Origin: Owenia fusiformis
Lineage: Eukaryota
Length of the DNA: 64,000 nucleotides
Direction: 5' to 3'
Assembly: GCA_903813345.2 (NCBI GenBank)
Contig: CAIIXF020000001.1
Coordinates: 6,262,001 to 6,326,000 of the forward strand
The notes beneath the pieces are model-generated. The model searched no databases and had not been told where the DNA came from. It worked only from the letters and a program-made list of their open reading frames with translations. A program made the translations under genes and the position numbers. Shown piece by piece: positions 1,952 to 33,500 of the stretch. Each line of letters begins with the position of its first letter. The first letter of the stretch is position 1.

Positions 1952-3083
1952 ATGCGCAGCTATCTATACTGCTTTGCGCACTTCTCACTAATGTCAGTGA
2001 TACTTGAAATGATTTAACAGAAATTAACATGAATGATTCTTCTGGTTTTTCCTTTAGAATTGCCATTTCAAAAGCCATTGACATTTCAACAGCTTACCTA
2101 GCTCATCATTTCACGTAAGACGTGCATCTAAGTTAAGATAAGTTACAATCTAAGTTAAGCTACATGCATTGGAGAATAAATGTATATGGACATTGGTTAT
2201 CAATGATGTGTTTTGATTTTCCAAAAGATTTCAAATGATGTTAGCTTTTATAGTTTTCTTCCATACTGGCAATGTTAGATACATGTAAGGCTAGATGGCC
2301 ATATTAGAACATTAGATTCAAAACGGCAGGCCCCAAAATGTTTGCACATAAATATTGTTTTGTTCAAGCCAAAAAATATTTGACAATACGTTGAATCAGA
2401 CCCCATTTTCTAAAAGCAATGCCTATCGATGGAGCAGTGTACTGGGGTACATGTACTTCTAGATCTCGTTTTGGTTTCGTATATTGGATCAGCCTAATAT
2501 TGCTACATTGATTTACAGACTGACAAAGACAAATCTAATTTTCTGATTTGATTATCTGTGATTGTAATTATCCTGGGCCATGAAATAATTCGAACAATTT
2601 TCATGGAACTCCAAAGATAAAAGAAACGATCGTGTATATTGTAATTAACTATCATATGTAATAATTATTATGTAATTAGTGACCCTTCTGACTTTAATAT
2701 CAAAAACAGGAACAGGAACTGAATTCGGAACTTGCAGATTTGTAAGAATCAATATTATCAATATTGTTCAGCTGGTAGTGGTGATAAATATACTTACGAC
2801 ATCAGATTCTCTAACACACTAAATGTTATCACTGATCAAAATAACTGCTCTGTGTAATACATTAGCTTAGGGCGGGGTTGCAACTTGCAATTCACTGACG
2901 AAGTTACTTAGGAAATGAGAAAGCATTAACGACAACAGCATGCCATGATGAATCTTATCTTTAATTTCAGAACAATGGTACAGACAAACTGAATAGACTA
3001 TACTCAATAGCGAAATAACGATAAGGTTGGGCGACAATTTCGAAAAGGCAAAGTGAAACCGATAGCAGCTTATAAACAACAAA

Positions 3084-12124
<9,041 letters not shown>

Positions 12125-22840: not shown

Positions 22841-24448
22841 TATTAGTTTCTCTGCAAAAGTAAATCAAAAGAGTTACCATGACATGTACATTTACCTTTT
22901 CAAAAAATGTGTCAGCCCGGGTGTGTCAGTTTTGGAATGGTTTAGACTTGTCTTGTATTTTTCATTTTCTTTGCCCATTTAAATTGACAAGCTTGCAAAA
23001 CAAGTCATACAAATTAAGACTGCAAAAATATTATCAATTTGAATTGAAATTTCATCAGAATTAAGATAATCTTTACATTCTTTCTGTTACTGACCTTAGA
23101 GCTTTTTAGAGTTCCAGAATGTGTATGGCAAAATCAATACAGTATCATACAATATATATAAATATAATAAACATACAATAATCTATCTATACTATACTTT
23201 ATAATAGAGAGAACAAAGATAGATGACAACAAAAATGTCTATGTTTTAAACTCATCATGTGTCACCTTCTCATTCCTATTTTCTAAAATCTGTCTTTACA
23301 TTAACTTGTGCCAACAATAGAATTTGCTTTGCATTAATCCTCTTCTGTATCCAAATTTTCAAATAGGCTCAGTAGTAAAGGAGATTGCCTTTTCTAAATA
23401 GGTTGTTTTAATATTTTCAACAAAGGTTCAATATTCGGTTTCAAAATTATCCCAATTTTAGACCTACTCTGGGAGTCAAGAGGCTATAATTTATAACTAT
23501 CCTCTTACTCACATGGAACACCTTGACAACGTCAGATACCGTTTTCACAAATGGCGGCCATAGATTCGTATTCGAATCGATGTTTGTTAAATGCGTGTTG
23601 AACTCTTGAACAACAATCAATCAAAGCGCGTCTATTCATCGTATAGTATAGTAAGTTCTACCAATCATCCAAATAAAGCTTTTAATTGTATCGATCAAAC
23701 TACGACATTGGACAACGGAAATGACAACGGTAAGTATGGATCAAATGTGCTGTAAACTCGGGATACCAACGGTAATATTTGAAAATGACATCGGTAAATA
23801 TGGATCAAATGTGCTCAAGGGTAATGTGCCTAATTCCCGTTGTCATTTCTCATGTGTTCCAATGCAATACATCCACTTTAGTCCTTTGTATTATCTTACC
23901 ATGTGTCGTTGTTAATTTGAAATTCGGATTCCGTTGTCATTTACGATAAAGAAGTCGGTACATTGTGGCGATTCACGACCACATTTGATCGAAATGAGAA
24001 TTTCATATTATACATCATTCACCACATGCACGCTTGTTATAAGGCCATATCATAAAAATAAATCGAGTATCGTCTGATTCAATGACAAATAACATATCAT
24101 TCGAAGTAGGCACATGCGGAAATTCTGAAGTCTTGGCCACACCATTCATGATTACTTCACCGATACGTTACAGAAAATCAAAATTAGCATTTACACGTTT
24201 GGTGATAGATATATTGAAAATATTAAACAAGAAGTTTAATCCAATAATGCCACCATTCTAGGTAAATATCGGTGCACGAATTGTTCATTTTGACGCAGTT
24301 ACCGAACCTGACTGTCGGGCGTTATTTCCTAAACTTCACACTCGATGGTATCTCGTGCAAAGGTTGAAATAACAACTTTTTGAGGAATAAATCAATCCAT
24401 ATTGCACTGATACGAGCGATTAAATCTTCAAGCCAAGTGATTGAAGAG

Positions 24449-27400
24449 TTTTTTTTTTTTTTTTTATTAAGTTATTCATTTGTACAAAGAATACAATACA
24501 AAATACAGTGTGAGTGGCTGTGCTTTTAGCATTATTAGCCACGTTCTACAATTACAATATACAATGTATTCAATCAATACTATTGATTAAAATAAATGAG
24601 ATACAATAAGATAAAAATTGTTTTGTGGAGGATTTCAGACATTTACACATCGCTCGAAGAAAATGGCACTGCACTTTAAAACAATCAGATTCTCAGCTCT
24701 ACTTAATGTTTTATCACCATTGAGGATCAGAGAAAGTTTATCACGTTGTGTCTTATATTTACGGGAGTATTGTATATTCATATTTTTTAGTTGGTTTTCT
24801 AATTCAGTCCAGAATGTTAATCTCAAGTTACATCGAAAAATCACATGGCTGGTTGTTTCACTGTTAATACCACATGAGCAGATTGGGGAATTTACATTGG
24901 TAAAGTTATGTGAGTAAAGGTGAGCCTTGAAAATGAAATCACATCGTACTCTGTTAAATATAATTTCTTGATTTCTTGAGATGGACAATTCTGATGAGTT
25001 AATAACAGTTTCGTTAAAGATATTGCTTTTAAGGCTTGATTTAAATATGCTTAAGCTAGATGAGTTCTTTATATCAGATGAGAGTAGATTCCATTCTGAT
25101 ATTGTTTTTGAGATACAAGATCTTTCATAAAATTTGGATTTAACTGGTAAAATATAGTCAAGTTGGTGTCTTAGTTCATGTGTTTGATTTCTTTTTAGTG
25201 GTTCAAATATCTCAGTGACATAAGAAGGCAGCAAGTTGTTGTGAGCTCTATACATAAAGGTAGCTCTATGATATTGACGTCTATTTGAGAGTGTGGGCCA
25301 ATTTAAAGTATTCAACACTTTTGTGGCTGATGTTCCATGCGTGGCACCTGAACAAATAATTGCAGCTTTATAGTAAAGGCGGTCTAAAAGTTGTAGTTTT
25401 GTCAAATTTGCACATCCGTAAAGAATGTCACAATAATCAAAGAGTGGCAAAATAAAAGAATTAAAAATTGTTTCAAGGTGTTTTCCACTTATTTTCTTAC
25501 TGAAGACTTTTAACGGATTTATGAGTTTATCTATTCTTGCCACAAGTTCAGTAATGTGATAGTCAAAAGTGAGATTTTTGTCCAAAATCAAGCCCAAGTG
25601 CTTGTGATTGTTTACTCTCGGTAACTTGTCATTACCAAGGGAAAGATCTGGGGTCAAAATTTCGCGCTTTCTTGGATTAAAAAAAGTCATATCTTTACTT
25701 TTACTAGCTTTGAAGTTTAATTTCCATGTATTTGACCATAAGAGAATTTTATTTAGATCCTCTTGTAATTCATTATTCTTATCAGCTGCTGTTTCAGCTG
25801 TGAAGGATTGGTAAAGTGACGTGTCGTCTGCATATATAAAACATTTGGTATTTAAGTTATCAGGTAAATCATTGATATAAATTAGAAACAGGAGGGGGCC
25901 TAATATGGAGCCTTGAGGTACTCCTGCGTTTATATGGTTCATCTCAGATAGTTCAGACTCTTGGCCATCCAATACAACTTTCACTTGTCTATTAGATAGG
26001 TACGATTTCATTAATTCTATGATGTTATGACCAAAACCATACATTTCCAGTTTTTTTAATAGTAGCCCATGGGGCATTGAATCAAAGGCGGCCGAAATGT
26101 CAAGATAAATCCCCCTTACATTGGCCCCATTTTCAATTTCATTAGTTATGACATCAATTATACTTAGAAGCTGTGCCTGGGTGCTGTGACCTGGCAAAAA
26201 GCCACTTTGGAGGTTATAAAATAAATTGTTCACAATTAGATGGTCAAAAAGTCTTTTGAAGATTACGCGTTCTGCAACTTTAGATATACAGCTCAGGAGA
26301 GTTATAGGTCTATAATTTTTTACATCTGTTTTGTCTTTACTTTTATGAATTGCTACAACGTGGCCTACCTTCCAAGGTTGGGGGTATTTATTAAGAATGA
26401 ACATTTTGTTTAATAATTTTGATAATATCGGTGAAAGTGATGGTGCTGCCATTTTAAGCATTCTATTGCTTAACATGTCAGGGCCAGTAGCTTTATTTGT
26501 GTCTAACCCAAGTAAAATGCTATAAACCTCTCTATCATTAGTAGAGAGTAGGTCAAAAGATTGATCAGTTCTTGGAATAAAAGTTTCATTTCCTTCTTGA
26601 TAATTTATATGATATTTGTCAGTGAAATGAGACAGTAGCAAGTTTGCTTTGTCATGGCTATCAGTGTAACTGTTACCCCTAGCATCACAAAGAAGTGGTA
26701 TTTTACTATTTTTAGATTTTCCCAAAAGCCTACTTACAATTGACCAGTATCCTTTGCTTCCATATCTCTGATTACTTAATTTATAGTACAACCTTGATTC
26801 CATTGCCTCTTTGGCCTCACGAATAGCATCATTAACAAGATTACATTGATCAGTATATTTCTTAAAGTATTTGTCATCATGTGTTTTCCTGTACTTACGA
26901 TGTAATTTATTTCTTTTATTTATCAAGGTTTTGATATCGCTTGTAAACCATGGCTTATCCGTAGGTTTAATTTCAATATCAGAGTTTGGAATAAGATCTG
27001 TAAAAATTGCAAGTAACCCTCTAGAAAAATTGCTTACTATGTCATCTAAATCATTACTACTATCTATCAAGTGATCAAAGTCTGCTGCTCTAACTGAATT
27101 GTTAATTAGATTTATATCTGCTTGGTCATATTTCCAAATTTTTCTTGAATAAGGACGGTTTTTAAGAGTTTTAAGAAAACACTCCGTGTTTATTGAGCAA
27201 TGGTCAGTGTTACCAATAGGAGGAGAAACATAAGCATTTGTTATAATATCAGGGCTATTTGAAATGAGAAGATCAATACATGATCTACTGGTATTTGTTA
27301 TTCGCGTTGGTTCATCTATAAGCTGAAAAAGTCCAAGTTCTTCAATGTGTTCAAATAATTTTTTTCCTGTGAAATTTTCATTGTCTAAGGCCCACCATTG

Positions 27401-28835
27401 TTTACTCCTTGCATTAAAATCTCCATTAATAAAAATAGCTTCTGGGTTAGAGTCAAGTGCCATATTGCATGAGTTTGAGAACCTAGTGCAGAATTCATTT
27501 GCCTCATTTTGAGTTTGCGATGGTGACCTATAATAAATTGCATATAGATATGACTTATAGTTAATGCTCAATTCAATCCATAAGGAGTCACCCTGATCAT
27601 TCATAAGGTCATTTCTAATTTTAAAAGGGATATCATCTTTAACATATATCAATAGGCCTCGATTTTTATTCGAGTATACATGACAATGACCATCTATAGA
27701 ATAATCAGAAGAAACTGTCAAATCAGTTAGATTTCCAACCTCACAAAGTCCAATAATGTCATTTCCATTGATCTGTATTCTATCTTTAAGTGCTTCAAAT
27801 CTGGCATTTACATTTGCACTTATACTGTTTATATTTGAGAATAAAATCTTTGTGAGCTTAAAATGATTTGTAGGTCCTGGATTCTGATGAACATCATTAC
27901 TCAGTAAGAGAATAGCTTGAACAGTATTAGGAATATAACATAAAATAGCACAGAATGGAATGAACAATAAAACTATACTAGCAAACATCTTCATTATGTA
28001 AAATGTACCAAAATGTTTGTGATTGCTATGAATATAGACAATTGTGCCCATGAATGTTAAACCATGGATGACAACTAGAAATGTACTAATGCATCCAAAT
28101 AAAATCTTACAAGAATTCAAAGTGATTTGCCTGCCTGAATCTGCTATGTAGAGCTCAAAACCACATATCAATGTAAGGCAAATGTACAATGGAATCCAAG
28201 AGAGTGAGTTAAAATAGTCGAGTATGCATTTGCTGCCATTTTTGACTTCTCTCTTATTAACTGATATAAAACACTTTCTACTGTTGTGCATTCCAACACT
28301 CATCCTCCAGGCAGTGACACTTATGCCCATTTTAATACTAATTCATAGATGCAATATAAGAAAAGAAACCGTTCTATTTACAAATAAATTATCTGATGTG
28401 TCATGTCTGTTGAACACTTGCTATGTGAAATACTGTTCCCTTGATTCCTTATAGTAGCTTATTGAATATGTAATAAAAGTAGCTAAATACAGTGATAAGA
28501 AAGTAAGGGTTTTCCACCAATTAAGTTGAAAAGTTTCTCCACAAAACAACCTTTATTTTAAAATATTTAGTTAAAATTGATTAAAGTCAAGATATAAAAC
28601 AAATGTAGAAAAGTACAGTTATAGTATTTGACTTTTACTGTAAGTGTTTGGCTCTGAAAACGGCAAACTCAATGTTCTATCTGTTCAAGGGCAAAAACTT
28701 TTGAAAATATGTACAGAGCAACTCATTTCAGGTCACTGTGAGCAGTGTTTCAGTAAAGTGAAATACACCCATTAGCGCTACTGATTGGCGCAATGTAAGG
28801 TCATGACCTTGGATCTATGCCAAAACAGTGTTTAC
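24449..28835 (-). mobile_element. Apparently full-length non-LTR retrotransposon (APE-type, CR1/L2-group-like), single ORF
   Basis: 17-nt poly(A) tail on the minus strand (T17 at 24449-24465), ~170-nt 3'UTR, intact 1231-aa ORF, ~500-nt 5' region. An imperfect candidate TSD (attgaagag 24440-24448, attgagag 28836-28843) sets the 5' boundary only tentatively. Confidence 0.9.
24635..28330 (-). CDS. LINE polyprotein: hydrophobic leader + 2A-like motif + APE endonuclease + reverse transcriptase + C-terminal CCHC motif
   Basis: APE motifs SNINSI, IIGLCE, YYRSP, GDFNA, EPTR, SCIDL, TDH. RT motifs KATGPD, NYRPITLL, QSGF, LDISAAFD, GVPQGSILGPLLFLIYINDL, YADDT, HLG. C-terminal CSCGINSETTSHVIFRC. Confidence 0.95.
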   Translation of the reverse strand: MGISVTAWRMSVGMHNSRKCFISVNKREVKNGSKCILDYFNSLSWIPLYICLTLICGFELYIADSGRQITLNSCKILFGCISTFLVVIHGLTFMGTIVYIHSNHKHFGTFYIMKMFASIVLLFIPFCAILCYIPNTVQAILLLSNDVHQNPGPTNHFKLTKILFSNINSISANVNARFEALKDRIQINGNDIIGLCEVGNLTDLTVSSDYSIDGHCHVYSNKNRGLLIYVKDDIPFKIRNDLMNDQGDSLWIELSINYKSYLYAIYYRSPSQTQNEANEFCTRFSNSCNMALDSNPEAIFINGDFNARSKQWWALDNENFTGKKLFEHIEELGLFQLIDEPTRITNTSRSCIDLLISNSPDIITNAYVSPPIGNTDHCSINTECFLKTLKNRPYSRKIWKYDQADINLINNSVRAADFDHLIDSSNDLDDIVSNFSRGLLAIFTDLIPNSDIEIKPTDKPWFTSDIKTLINKRNKLHRKYRKTHDDKYFKKYTDQCNLVNDAIREAKEAMESRLYYKLSNQRYGSKGYWSIVSRLLGKSKNSKIPLLCDARGNSYTDSHDKANLLLSHFTDKYHINYQEGNETFIPRTDQSFDLLSTNDREVYSILLGLDTNKATGPDMLSNRMLKMAAPSLSPILSKLLNKMFILNKYPQPWKVGHVVAIHKSKDKTDVKNYRPITLLSCISKVAERVIFKRLFDHLIVNNLFYNLQSGFLPGHSTQAQLLSIIDVITNEIENGANVRGIYLDISAAFDSMPHGLLLKKLEMYGFGHNIIELMKSYLSNRQVKVVLDGQESELSEMNHINAGVPQGSILGPLLFLIYINDLPDNLNTKCFIYADDTSLYQSFTAETAADKNNELQEDLNKILLWSNTWKLNFKASKSKDMTFFNPRKREILTPDLSLGNDKLPRVNNHKHLGLILDKNLTFDYHITELVARIDKLINPLKVFSKKISGKHLETIFNSFILPLFDYCDILYGCANLTKLQLLDRLYYKAAIICSGATHGTSATKVLNTLNWPTLSNRRQYHRATFMYRAHNNLLPSYVTEIFEPLKRNQTHELRHQLDYILPVKSKFYERSCISKTISEWNLLSSDIKNSSSLSIFKSSLKSNIFNETVINSSELSISRNQEIIFNRVRCDFIFKAHLYSHNFTNVNSPICSCGINSETTSHVIFRCNLRLTFWTELENQLKNMNIQYSRKYKTQRDKLSLILNGDKTLSRAENLIVLKCSAIFFERCVNV

Positions 28836-29290
28836 ATTGAGAGTGATATATACCCGCACATAAGTTTCACTGTAACATAAATGTATCGTTTGTTTCCAAG
28901 TATATATCTTCTCAGGTCAGATCCCATATAGAAAAAAGATAAATTCTGCACTTATATAATACTATCGAAGTGTAATTAAAACCATTATAATATCATCATA
29001 TTGATATATAACTGTTTCTAAAGAGAGGATGAAGTATTTATGAGTTTTTATCACTGTTCAGCAACATAGAAACATTACAGTAGAAGCATTGATAAATCCG
29101 ATTAGTCAGATACACTGTGTAAGATCTCAATGCAACAACTGGTCTTGAATATAAACTAAAGGGTATTAGTATATATTGTTGAGAATATTCATTGGCACCG
29201 ACATTGAAGAGTTGCGACGTTTACGTCCGCTATTTGTGACAACGATATCTGACTTAACCGTTGTCGGTGTGTTCTGTGATGTGTTACTTA

Positions 29291-30087
29291 CCCTACTATC
29301 ACACCAAACTAGTTCTCACCACGTTCTCAAAAACGGGCTTCAACTGTGTACGAACGGACTGGACCTACTAAGAACCGTTTGGGATCTATTAACAAACTTC
29401 ATCGAACGTACTCGAACTGGTAGGTCCTCTAGAACTTAGACAATGCTCAAAATGTTCTTGTGGTCGTCACGTTCTACAATAAGAACGAGTGACAACGTAC
29501 TAACCACGAGCTGGACGTACTACGAACGGAACCGTCGTACTTCAATCCTACTAGGGACGGTTTAACAACGAGTTGAATTGTCTGAGGACGTGTTGAGAAC
29601 GAGGTAGAACTAATTGCAAACGGGTTTAAACTGATTGAGAACGTATTTAACACTGCTTATGAACGAGTTAGCAAAGATATAGCTATCACACCAAACAAGT
29701 TGCCACTGCGTTCTTCAAAACTGTGTGCGAACGGAATGAACGTAGCTGCAACTTTCTAAGGTCTATTTACGAACTTTATGATCGTTCTCAGACGGGAATG
29801 TGATTTTAGAATTTTGAATCGATTCAAAATTCGATGGCGACCATAACGTTCTGTAATCAGGTCATGTTGACCTTCTAGACTAAGGGACGCGTTCTACTAC
29901 GTTGCACACCGACGTGGTGCGACCTGAACGAACTGCGAACGAGATGGACGTATTGAAGACTGTTTAAGAACGAAGAAGCTAATTATTTCAGACATATTTC
30001 CCGACCGCAGCCAGATTGAGCCCGTTTTACGACGTTTTCGTAGGACTGGCAAGAACGGGTAAGAACGAGTTTGGTGTGATAGGGGGG
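29291..30087. mobile_element. TIR MITE (possibly PIF/Harbinger-like)
   Basis: tta|ccctactatcacaccaaactagttct ... agaacgagtttggtgtgatagggggg|taa. Has an internal copy of the TIR core at ~29682-29700 and many gaacg motifs. Confidence 0.8.
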
Positions 30088-30566
30088 TAAGATAATTATT
30101 TTACAGTTTTAAGCTGATGATATCTTGATGACCCCAAATTATCTATTGTTCACTTTCGTGTAAGTATGAATATGAAATAGAAGCCAGTTACTTATGAAGG
30201 CAGAGACTGCTGTAACTACACTTCCGATAAGGTAGCTATAGTTGGCCAACCTTATCGAATTGGATGAGGCAAGATCCTGATGCAAAGTCAAAGTCATGGA
30301 AACGTTAAAAAGAACCATTATAAATGATGAGCCCTTTACGGGGGAGGTGAACCTTACGGCTCCACACTTGCGGCCAGGTCCACTTCATCTTGTGTCCAAC
30401 ACATGCATGCACATTTCACAAGTCCAGGGCTTAAATCCTTAAACTGTTAAATAACAGACTGCTCTAATAACAAGCAGAGAATCTGTTGTAACATTTGTCT
30501 GCAGTTTCTAAATGCCTCTTATAATATGCTGTTAATTTATTTGACTTCACCTGGGTAGAGTCACAG

Positions 30567-33500
30567 TTACATATACTCATCAGGTGATGGCGGTGAACAT
30601 TTGCAAGGCATGTAAGAAGACTTTTGACATGGCGTGGATTTTGTCTTCTTGACAGAACCTTTTGCATATCTGATCGATTTCTCTTTTAACTTGCGATGAA
30701 GACCCGCAAGTTCCATCTGCATGTTCCCTATCCTATCAAACACTCGGTCCAAGTTGTCCTTTACATCTTCATCTGGAAGTATGGAATACTTAGTTGTACT
30801 GGCAATAATATGATGTTTTTCGCGTTAAATTCCCACCCGAGAGTTATAAGGCTACCGTTATAAGACATTCTAAATCTGATACTCATCATATTTTTCTGTT
30901 TAGAGCCCAGAGAAGAGATCGTAGAAAATGTCAAAATTCTACAATATTCTATGGGTCTATTAAACATATTTTGTAAAACTTTCAACAGTTGACCTGTCTC
31001 CTCTATTTCCTTATTGTGCTTTGATGATCTTTAAATGTTATTTGGTAATCCATTCGAAAAAGTGGTTGCCATCTTCCCATTCCAAATTAATTTGAATTGA
31101 AAAATCAACTCGACAGATTTTTTAAAAACAAAAAAGCTTTACCTTCATATGTCTCATCAAGGCATTTGAACTGATTTTTGTAGATGTAGCGACGAACCAG
31201 ACGCTGCATAACTTCCTAAAACATTGGAGGATTTTCGATTTTACTTTATATTTTGAACCACAAGTTTCATTTTGGCAAGCCATTGCGCTTTGTGTTTTTC
31301 AACTCTTGCAGCTCCATATTATGTTTTGACGCTTAGATGTTTGCATGAAGTTTAAAATTTTATTTTGTCAAAAATGATTTTTTTCTTATTATTTTTAATC
31401 GTTAAAACATTGCATTTGATTCTGTTACCACTGATGCATAAGAAACCCGGATGATGTAACGTAAATGGCTCAATTCATATAGGCCATATAACGGTGTCCC
31501 ATTAGTTTGAATATAATCTCTCGTCCTCTCTAGTGATCTCGGATGGGATAGGCAGGGTTGATTCAACTAACCTCGTAGTGGCTCCTTGGTTCACACTGAA
31601 ACCAATCTATATCGGAGTCTCTCGCCATACGCCGCTGTAACAAACGTTATAAGAACTAAAAAACGGTCTAGTATCCACAGTTTGGCTTATCCATACGAAG
31701 TAGCCGTAAAGACAATCAAATATCTGATCTTGAACATAATTCATCGTAATTGTAATGAACTAAATCAGTCGGATAAAATAGCATAGACGTAGGTTTTATT
31801 CAAAGCGTTGTATATATTTAACGTTGACATACTTTTTTCATATATGCAGATGCCATCTTGTCGATCTCAGTGGTACTATCTCCAAATGCTTTCTTCTTCA
31901 CCCATTGGAACAGGTAGCATAGGTATTTCGGGTTTGGGATCAAGTTCAGTGGGGCAGGGACAGTCATCCCATGCTCAAAATACTGAATCCTAAGTTTGGC
32001 TCGAGCGAATTTCCATTCGACATCTTTGTCCTCCTAAGAAAAAAAGATTTATTTTTAAGACTTTTAGAAAAATAATTATCCCCATCTAGACTTTTAGAAA
32101 CATTATTATCACTCTTTGGGTAAAAAATTAATTAAGTCTGAAGTCTGACTTTGATGAATCAGAGGAGATAACTACTGCAAAAATTGACATTGTTAACACT
32201 GTTAACTACTGTAAAAAATGGCATCTAATTCTTAACACTGTTAACTACTGCAAAAAATGACATTTAATTGTTAACACTGCAAAAATGACATTTAATTGTT
32301 AACATTGTTAGCTACTGCAAAAGCGACATTTAATTGTCAACACTGTTAACTACTGTAAGAAATGACATTTAATTGTTACCACTCTTAACTAATGCAAAAA
32401 ATGACATTTAATTGTTAACACTGATAACTACTGCAAAAATGAAATTTAATTGTTAACACTGACGTATAGCTGGATGTGATGTGGACCTCAATGACATTAC
32501 AAAAGAGAATATTTTAATTTCGCCTAACATCATCAAGTTTGCCGGAACCATTCGGGCTTTATCTGTAATAAATGTCTTAATTGATATTATACTCAATACT
32601 GCGAGTAAGTTCATGACCCGATTGTAAGGCCAATATTATGGGAAACAACTTTCAAACTTGCAACTTACATAGATCTCTTGGAACGAATTATTCATCATTG
32701 CAATCAACATATTCAGAAGAACTACGACGCCTGCCAAAATATAGCTAGCAAATAGAACAGAGCCTACAGTTTCTGTCCATTTACGAAAGTCCTTATCGAG
32801 AAGATTCACATTCTCCATTGCAACTTCCGGTGACGTTTTGTCGCCCATACCAAATGTTGCCCAAAACAAACTTCCAATTGACCGTTGTAATCTGCAAAAG
32901 ATGCGATTGAACACTCAGGTTGTGGACATTTCCGATTTAGGACTTGCACCATGAAGTCGACCCTTTGACTTCAAATTGATTATGCAATGCAAGTATCCAC
33001 TCTTTTAGATTATACGAATGCCCCATATTTGGCCCATGTTATACTAAAGTATATTCAATTTGGCGTAAGAAGTGGACCATAAAGTGGAGTTAAATTTTTC
33101 TCGCCGAGTACGTTTTTACTCACTCGTTGAAATGCGTGTTTTCATCACAGACATATATCTGGTAGAGACTTGTCAGACCACATACAAATGCCATGAACAC
33201 AAGGAAAAATACAAACAGGAAGCGTGTGACATCCTTCATCATCTGACCGAATGAGATCATGAGGGGCCCTAGCTGTTGACTGGCGGGCAAAAGGTGCGCT
33301 AAACGGGTAAAACTTAATACGTTTGCCAGAGCGAAGAACATGTCTGCAAGGTGATGAGGCTGGGGTAGGGGGAAGTTGTGCCTGCTTCTTAGCATCATCG
33401 ATTCTGAAATATACCGAAGATTGGCAGTAACCGTACAGTAACCAGTTATTACAGTTATATGTTTTTGTGCAAAAAATGATTGTCCCAATAGGTCAAACTA

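Follow-up and report, generated by a model that had tools for sequence, protein, structure and literature searches.

The 64,000-nt window of Owenia fusiformis DNA analysed here (contig CAIIXF020000001.1, positions 6,262,001 to 6,326,000; coordinates below are those of the window) contains, on its minus strand, a long interspersed nuclear element (LINE) of 4752 bp, 29202..24451. Its single open reading frame (ORF) opens with a leader that is joined through a 2A/StopGo-like motif to an endonuclease-reverse transcriptase (EN-RT) part. This leader carries an N-terminal motif found across the family and, in the element's own clade, three predicted membrane helices, and it is the subject of this report.

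Anatomy of the element

The borders of the LINE were set by an 11-nt target-site duplication (TSD). The exact 11-mer that follows the A-tail is also found directly upstream of the 5' untranslated region (UTR), where only about 3e-4 matches would be expected in the 1270 nt searched. Between the two copies lies an unbroken ORF of 1231 aa in which Pfam recognises both an APE endonuclease and a reverse transcriptase, the domain combination of a LINE. The TSD, the 3' tail and a multi-copy, 5'-truncated family are likewise those of a LINE insertion. There is no ORF1, as the 872-nt 5' UTR holds no minus-strand ORF of at least 60 aa, and no second copy of the LINE was found within the 64-kb window. 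The element is an intact, recently inserted copy of a non-LTR retrotransposon. It is a single-ORF, APE-type LINE, as an earlier interpretation made from the letters of this stretch (the sequence-only reading) had proposed.

Table 1. Features of the LINE, with positions in the window and the basis of each assignment (aa, residues of the ORF product).
Feature	Position	Strand	Basis
TSD, 5' copy, 11 nt	29203..29213	-	exact 11-mer match
5' UTR, 872 nt	28331..29202	-	between TSD and Met1
Single ORF: leader, 2A, APE, RT, C-terminal Cys/His motif	24635..28330	-	ORF and Pfam
N-terminal motif, aa 1-15, MGISVTAWRMSVGMH, core W8-R9-x-x-V12-G13	28286..28330	-	pattern count in relatives
Basic linker, aa 16-44	28199..28285	-	7 K/R, counted jointly with the N-terminal motif
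Predicted hydrophobic helix 1, aa 45-63	28142..28198	-	Kyte-Doolittle peak; AlphaFold2 helix 45-63
Predicted hydrophobic helix 2, aa 76-100	28031..28105	-	Kyte-Doolittle peak; AlphaFold2 helix 69-102
Predicted hydrophobic helix 3, aa 112-134, includes Pro125	27929..27997	-	Kyte-Doolittle peak, AlphaFold2, alignment
2A/StopGo-like element, aa 135-153: Leu-rich helix AILLLS followed by N-DVHQNPG/P (slash, release site)	27872..27928	-	core octapeptide 27872-27895
APE endonuclease domain, aa 166-377	27200..27835	-	Pfam PF03372, 6.3e-07; PF14529, 5.7e-11
Reverse transcriptase (RT) domain, aa 667-890	25661..26332	-	Pfam PF00078, 1.9e-31
3' UTR, 169 nt with AATAAA, and A-tail of 15-17 nt (24465-24451/24449)	24451..24634	-	
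TSD, 3' copy	24440..24450	-	directly after the A-tail

A 2A-like motif with histidine at p14

The sequence-only reading had placed DVHQNPGP at residues 146-153, directly after QAILLLSN, and both are present as it described, on the minus strand, which it had not specified (27895..27872; GAT GTT CAT CAG AAT CCA GGA CCT). It had also put the APE domain immediately behind the motif. The domain does follow, but after a gap of 13 residues, as the first Pfam match (PF03372) spans residues 166-377; that of PF14529 spans 265-380. The motif departs from the strict D(V/I)ExNPGP consensus in having His at p14. A Leu-rich hydrophobic upstream context is present, with AILLLS at -14 to -9 and a low-confidence AlphaFold2 helix at residues 136-143.

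Searching with the EN-RT part (residues 150-1231) matched 1237 proteins, and the best 120 of these were analysed; they are the relatives referred to throughout. The closest are unnamed proteins of 37-39% identity. In 91 of the 120, [NH]PGP precedes the APE domain at the same place as in the window, which bears out the assignment of a 2A-type motif to the leader/APE boundary. Five of the 29 motif-less relatives have a core changed by one residue (NPGH, NPGQ, NPGD, DPGP, QPGP), and the other 24, read by eye, begin at or inside the APE domain and are thus truncated gene calls. The upstream helix is kept in all five with the spoiled core (P0005, P0036, P0046, P0069, P0110), and P0110 also retains the N-terminal motif and four hydrophobic stretches. 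These five are probably decaying copies and would make useful natural negative controls.

Among the 91 motif-bearing relatives, p14 is E in 43, H in 42, Q in 5 and N in 1. The neighbouring positions are p12 (D 68, G 8, T 7, N 7, R 1), p13 (I 47, V 43, L 1) and p16 (N 86, H 5). His at p14 is followed by P in 32 of its 42 occurrences, while the window reads HQ. None of the 91 has K, D, A, G or V at p14, although each of these is one nucleotide change from a Glu codon; the change from Glu to His takes two, via Gln or Asp codons. A FastTree tree of 92 sequences, aligned over their post-2A parts with the leader and 2A excluded, requires at least 16 interchanges between E and H with NPGP kept. The restricted set of residues and the repeated switching suggest that p14 is constrained to E/H(/Q) and that His is a standing functional state rather than a product of decay.

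The motif had been described beforehand as a non-canonical 2A. For the H in place of the consensus E this label is too strong: H is as common as E among the relatives and the variant has already been published. LINEs of the Rex1, L2, Crack and CR1 types are described as often having a substituted Glu (PMC3708506). Among RNA viruses the p14 = H variant is rare and over-represented, and E14 is seen to stack on a 28S rRNA base in a cryo-EM structure (PMC12846837).

The leader is a hydrophobic coding sequence

The protein begins with MGISVTAWRMSVG. A Kyte-Doolittle scan (19-aa window, mean of at least 1.6) gave peaks that begin at residues 45, 76 and 115, corresponding to the three hydrophobic stretches reported for the leader by the sequence-only reading, and zero peaks in the 1078 residues after the 2A motif. 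The structure prediction it had called for agreed in part: an AlphaFold2 model based on seven aligned leaders places helices at the hydrophobic stretches (45-63, 69-102 and 109-123/128-132), but at low confidence (mean pLDDT 59.1, pTM 0.35). Hydrophobic segments of at least 19 aa and a positive-inside bias, the two sequence features looked for in a polytopic membrane protein, are both present.

The leader frame has 0 stops. Its other two frames have 11 and 12, and each frame of the 5' UTR has 14-20. With the base composition of the leader, a run of 153 open codons has a probability of 1.7e-5. Met1, with an in-frame stop 5 codons upstream, is in a favourable initiation context (A at -3, G at +4). 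The pattern [WHYF]-R-x-x-[IVT]-[GA] occurs within the first 20 residues of 32 of the 120 relatives, where 0.04 would be expected, and just 3 times across 132,103 positions elsewhere in the same proteins. It starts at positions 2-9 (at 7 or 8 in 28 of the 32). The fixed N-terminal place of this family motif indicates that Met1 is the family's true N-terminus and argues against a downstream start. As judged from these sequence comparisons, the leader belongs to the coding sequence of the element and is conserved.

Searches with the leader by itself were largely uninformative. A word-indexed search with residues 1-165 gave zero matches, the ESM Atlas gave no usable match to the leader, and all Pfam matches of the leader to membrane families were below cut-off. 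A phmmer search of 1.84 billion representatives gave 2 matches with E of about 5e-4 to 8e-4, to DnaJ and to a bacterial Shr/SLH protein, both of which were rejected as spurious. A profile of seven leaders run against longer proteins recovered 3 of its own members and one new 270-aa fragment, P0124.

Leaders of the relatives and of the element's own clade

In the leaders of the 91 2A-bearing relatives (last 18 residues excluded), 74 Kyte-Doolittle peaks were found in 5,832 residues (1.27 per 100 aa), compared to 24 peaks in 97,349 residues downstream of the 2A (0.025 per 100 aa), so that the leaders are about 50-fold denser in peaks than the rest of the same proteins. The proportion of leaders with at least one peak varies with leader length: 16 of 18 at 100 aa or more, 23 of 27 at 60-99 aa, 6 of 29 at 20-59 aa, and 0 of 17 among those shorter still. 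Thirty-one relatives have both the N-terminal motif and the 2A, and thus complete N-termini; their leaders are 50-167 aa long, and 12 of them have no peak, 13 have one, 2 have two, 3 have three and 1 has four. The predicted hydrophobic module is therefore common and variable, not universal.

On the tree, the window element falls in a clade of seven with P0004, P0006, P0007, P0008, P0009 and P0072 (local support 100), the end branches of which are 0.57-0.86 changes per column. Despite this deep divergence, each of the 7 has a leader of 138-153 aa with three hydrophobic peaks. At p14, 3 of them have E, 3 have H and 1 has Q. A leave-one-out hidden Markov model (HMM) of the six other clade leaders, with the last 18 residues cut, gives the window leader 17.6 bits (E = 3e-4), while the best of 1400 composition-matched shuffles reached 12.3 bits against the same HMM; the check across relatives suggested by the sequence-only reading thus supports conservation of the leader. 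Global alignments of leaders against that of the window (300 shuffles per pair) gave z-scores of 5.6 for P0007, 5.3 for P0124, 3.9 for P0008, 3.4 for P0072, 2.8 for P0009, 1.9 for P0004 and 0.06 for P0006. The residues invariant in the seven-leader alignment are M1, P125 (within helix 3), D146, N150, P151, G152 and P153.

Summed over eight leaders, K+R number 40 in the N-terminal region, 7 in loop 1, 24 in loop 2 and 5 in the tail, and the N-terminus and loop 2 together exceed loop 1 and the tail in each of the eight. This distribution is the positive-inside pattern expected of a three-span protein with its N-terminus inside. In all eight leaders, 17-28 residues separate the end of the last helix from the release site (18 in the window). 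The predicted order of the front end is thus conserved: N-terminal motif, basic linker, three transmembrane-like helices, 2A, and then EN-RT.

Copies, selection and transcripts in the source organism

Between 0.36 and 0.70 of the element's sampled words were present in 20 sequencing runs from six studies. In the DNA run X2, word depth lies at about 900-1500 in the region 26856-28956, rises to 2260-9000 in 25137-26091 and reaches about 9000 in 24564-24945, and depth at the level of the family reaches upstream to about 29150. This climb from 5' to 3' points to the 5'-truncation gradient of a multi-copy LINE.

Contigs from two DNA sets and raw reads from two RNA runs were mapped to 23800-29500 at a likeness of at least 90%. 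One contig of 790 nt (27412-28201; 3 differences, gapless) covers most of the leader, the 2A and the beginning of the APE domain. Of the 18 ORF substitutions listed (a further 97 variant rows, for the whole stretch, lie outside these counts), 14 are synonymous, compared to 20.5% expected for random changes (binomial p = 3e-7). All 9 rows of insertions or deletions within the element fall in the UTRs, though the ORF makes up 78% of its length. The family ORF is under purifying selection.

In the RNA run X22, depth of first mates on the plus strand was 5.15, 2.44 and 1.34 in the 5' UTR bins of 28384-28956, with the opposite strand at 0, 0 and 0. If the library is of the usual antisense-first type, this bias fits sense transcripts. 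Strand bias over the 5' UTR was weaker in the RNA run X23. No positions where many molecules start or end are listed for the mapped RNA runs, and they provide no mapped transcription start.

A model for the leader and 2A

We consider it probable, though well short of certain, that the leader inserts into the endoplasmic reticulum (ER) through its three helices and is freed by StopGo, with EN-RT restarted as a separate chain. Helices 1 and 2 would emerge 50-100 residues before the ribosome meets the 2A and, acting as signal-anchors, would recruit the translating element RNA to the ER with the N-terminus left in the cytosol. The ribosomal exit tunnel holds about 30-40 residues. Since the last helix ends within 17-28 residues of the release site, less than the length of the tunnel, helix 3 would still be in the tunnel at the moment of StopGo. 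The ribosome would then release a leader of about 152 aa at Gly152/Pro153, with the peptide bond unformed. Synthesis would resume at Pro153 and yield EN-RT as a chain of its own that has no signal and stays in the cytosol, beside its own RNA. What remains in the membrane would be the leader, a small polytopic protein that ends in NPG and has its last helix near the C-terminus. In parallel, the 2A may throttle the amount of EN-RT, taking over a role of the missing ORF1.

The sequence-only reading had suggested that partial skipping could leave some RT tethered to membranes and that the element might in this way reach the ER or vesicles, or move between cells. These proposals gain no support from the present analysis, and the predicted topology favours neither a tethered RT nor movement between cells. 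The charge pattern predicts a cytosolic N-terminus and a C-terminus on the other side, so any unskipped EN-RT would be threaded towards the lumen and not tethered in the cytosol. As for what the leader is for, our preferred guess, and a tentative one that may well be wrong, is that it replaces ORF1 in placing the ribonucleoprotein (RNP): as an ER-membrane protein standing in for ORF1p, it would bring the translating RNA to the surface of the ER and nuclear envelope, where EN-RT would be synthesised and would capture that RNA, and the clade would depend on this membrane step.

Weighing the model against alternatives

Several observations weigh against insertion and release of the leader. The case for its membrane helices consists of hydropathy, charge and the AlphaFold2 model with its low pLDDT of 59.1, and that for its homology consists of weak profile and alignment scores, because single-sequence searches gave no relatives. 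The 12 complete relatives without a peak lack a hydrophobic helix upstream of the 2A helix. Only four of the listed variants fall in the leader, two synonymous and two conservative (F84L and L43F), too few for a leader-only test. The RNA reads are few and may derive from any copy at least 90% alike. As to the 2A itself, the only LINE E-to-H 2A tested in print, Crack-15_BF, has very low activity (PMC3708506), and 59% of the ORF2p 2A-like peptides tested in a high-throughput screen lowered protein abundance instead of just causing skipping, and were placed in a 'reduction' class (PMC13405545).

These last results, together with the 3 Leu at -12 to -10 of the window 2A, would also be expected if the His variant barely separates the two chains and mainly stalls or attenuates translation, so that the product is mostly a membrane-bound or translocated leader-EN-RT fusion, or is degraded, and EN-RT is kept low. 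Down-regulation of ORF2 has indeed been proposed as the role of 2A in ORF1-less LINEs (PMC3708506, PMC3894237). We think this rather unlikely. The natural viral p14 = H variant is more than 95% active in its own context (PMC12846837), and the confinement of p14 to E, H, Q or N in 91/91 relatives, with NPGP surviving at least 16 E/H switches, fits a working core. Furthermore, with a helix number that ranges from 0 to 4, the side of the membrane on which a fused EN-RT ends up would depend on the lineage; a fused product would then have no conserved topology, which favours separation as the selected outcome. Attenuation and separation are in any case not mutually exclusive. StopGo is also reported to depend on a native upstream sequence longer than 30 aa (PMC12846837), and the hydrophobic stretches might accordingly be no membrane spans at all but a tunnel context for the 2A, or a by-product of T-rich sequence, with the released leader short-lived and functionless. 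The overall T content of the leader equals that of the 5' UTR (36.6% and 36.5%), the leader sequence diverges fast, and such helices are missing from the same 12 of 31 complete relatives. However, helices 1 and 2 sit 52-108 residues from the release site, well beyond the tunnel, and the T enrichment is specific to codon position 2 (40.5%, compared to 29.8% in the rest of the ORF). The three-helix layout in 7/7 members of a deep clade, the positive-inside pattern in 8/8 leaders and the enrichment of peaks over the rest of the same proteins also speak against this explanation, which we regard as improbable.

The 5' UTR has 16 upstream ATGs, the longest upstream ORF being 31 codons, and these would make simple scanning to Met1 inefficient. 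This counts against our model, and with the lack of a mapped transcription start it could mean that the leader is untranslated in vivo, that translation begins downstream (e.g. at Met94, Met113 or Met115) or by internal entry, and that the open frame is a remnant. Such a start seems to us very improbable indeed, given the family N-terminal motif exactly at Met1 in the window and at the N-terminus of 32 of the 120 relatives, the favourable context of Met1 and the stop-free frame; moreover, the downstream Mets fall within the hydrophobic helices. We therefore retain the model of a membrane-inserting leader released by StopGo.

Comparison with known systems and significance

A 2A in LINEs was reportedly described by Heras et al. 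in 2006. The placement of a 2A before APE in ORF1-less LINEs is established, and the known elements most like that of the window in layout are the 2A-bearing, single-ORF APE LINEs: L1Tc/Ingi of trypanosomes, and Rex1, L2, CR1 and Crack of sea urchin, amphioxus, molluscs and sea anemone (Odon et al. 2013, PMC3708506). The window LINE resembles the latter in having no ORF1, in a 2A that adjoins APE (2A ending at 153, APE starting at 166) and in a substituted Glu position, for which they include E to H (PMC3708506). It differs in that the published 2A sequences lie 40-80 aa from the N-terminus (PMC3708506), compared to residues 146-153 in the window and leaders of 138-153 aa in the clade of seven. 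The region upstream of the 2A is not discussed in the accessible text of PMC3708506, while in the window it has a conserved motif and three membrane-like helices. In the accessible text of the review PMC3894237, 'hydrophobic' and 'membrane' have 0 occurrences, and that of a 2026 screen mentions just 'differing amounts of ... preceding N-terminal sequence' (PMC13405545). Our full-text literature searches, whose coverage stops short of figures, supplements (e.g. PMC3708506 Figure 2A) and subscription journals, returned no description of a membrane-like LINE leader.

The nearest functional precedent is the 2A-like signal sequence of sea-urchin NLR proteins (Roulston et al. 2016, PMC4981915), which also combines a hydrophobic targeting element with StopGo and sends skipped and unskipped products to different compartments, a precedent for the idea of dual targeting. 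In those proteins, however, it is the 26-aa 2A-like sequence itself that forms the signal, of the cleavable type, at the very start of a cellular immune protein (PMC4981915). The 2A of the window lies 135 residues from the N-terminus and is not such a signal; the signal-anchor-like helices of the transposon are separate from it, 18-108 residues upstream of the release site, and the predicted released product is a 152-aa polytopic protein. RNA-virus p14 = H variants of StopGo share the core D-V-H-x-N-P-G-P and a Leu-rich upstream helix, and over-representation of the variant was argued there, as here, to reflect function (PMC12846837). In viruses the state is rare, and one native context was assayed in rabbit reticulocyte lysate (PMC12846837), in contrast to the near parity of H and E among the LINE relatives.

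LINE 2A sequences have been on record since 2006 and 2013, and the part they cut off has been treated until now as a short leader of unknown function. Here, that part is a conserved module with a family-wide N-terminal motif and, in the clade, three membrane-like helices with positive-inside charge, a layout that is common to many related elements and apparently has not yet been described. If the leader enters membranes, both the translation of LINEs and the assembly of their RNPs would be linked to the ER in these animals. That would add a new step to non-LTR biology and might explain how LINEs with no ORF1 cope without an RNA chaperone. The element would also be a natural test case for StopGo on a translocon-bound ribosome, and His at p14 would count among the mainstream states of StopGo in cellular elements rather than as a defect. 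If, in addition, the leader stands in for ORF1p, a large invertebrate LINE clade marked by the W/Y/H-R-x-x-I/V-G motif would depend on a membrane step, with access to vesicles and cell-to-cell or horizontal spread as the extreme case.

Genomic surroundings

A 70-aa exon-like ORF at 32636-32848 on the minus strand matches the pore/S6 end of Pfam Ion_trans (7.8e-08) and PKD_channel (2.5e-04). The LINE would thus lie about 3.4 kb from a cation-channel gene on the same strand, or in one of its introns.

Repeats of far higher copy number flank the LINE at 29204-29500 and 23800-23990, where X2 depth is 1.16 million (at 29339-29500) and 32,404 (at 23800-23990). RNA reads are abundant on both strands over these flanking repeats, and pieces of 29204-29327 recur in the window at 5301-5365, 5738-5789 and 30052-30091. 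The segment between the 3' TSD and the high-copy repeat, 23996-24440, has an intermediate X2 depth of about 3300-4100, and one X2 contig joins 23995 to 29216 and omits 5220 nt. This suggests a nested layout, in which an older insertion in the high-copy repeat was later followed by the LINE landing at its edge. We considered the joint of this contig as the empty site of the LINE and rejected it in favour of the TSD borders; it fits copies of the flanking high-copy repeat in which neither nested insertion is present.

In X22, 7 reads with 4 start places have a joint that leads back 113 positions from 29402 to 29290, with about 40 other letters between, and loose read ends cluster at 29287-29290, 29320, 29363 and 29402, suggesting that tandem or rearranged copies of the flanking repeat are present in transcripts.

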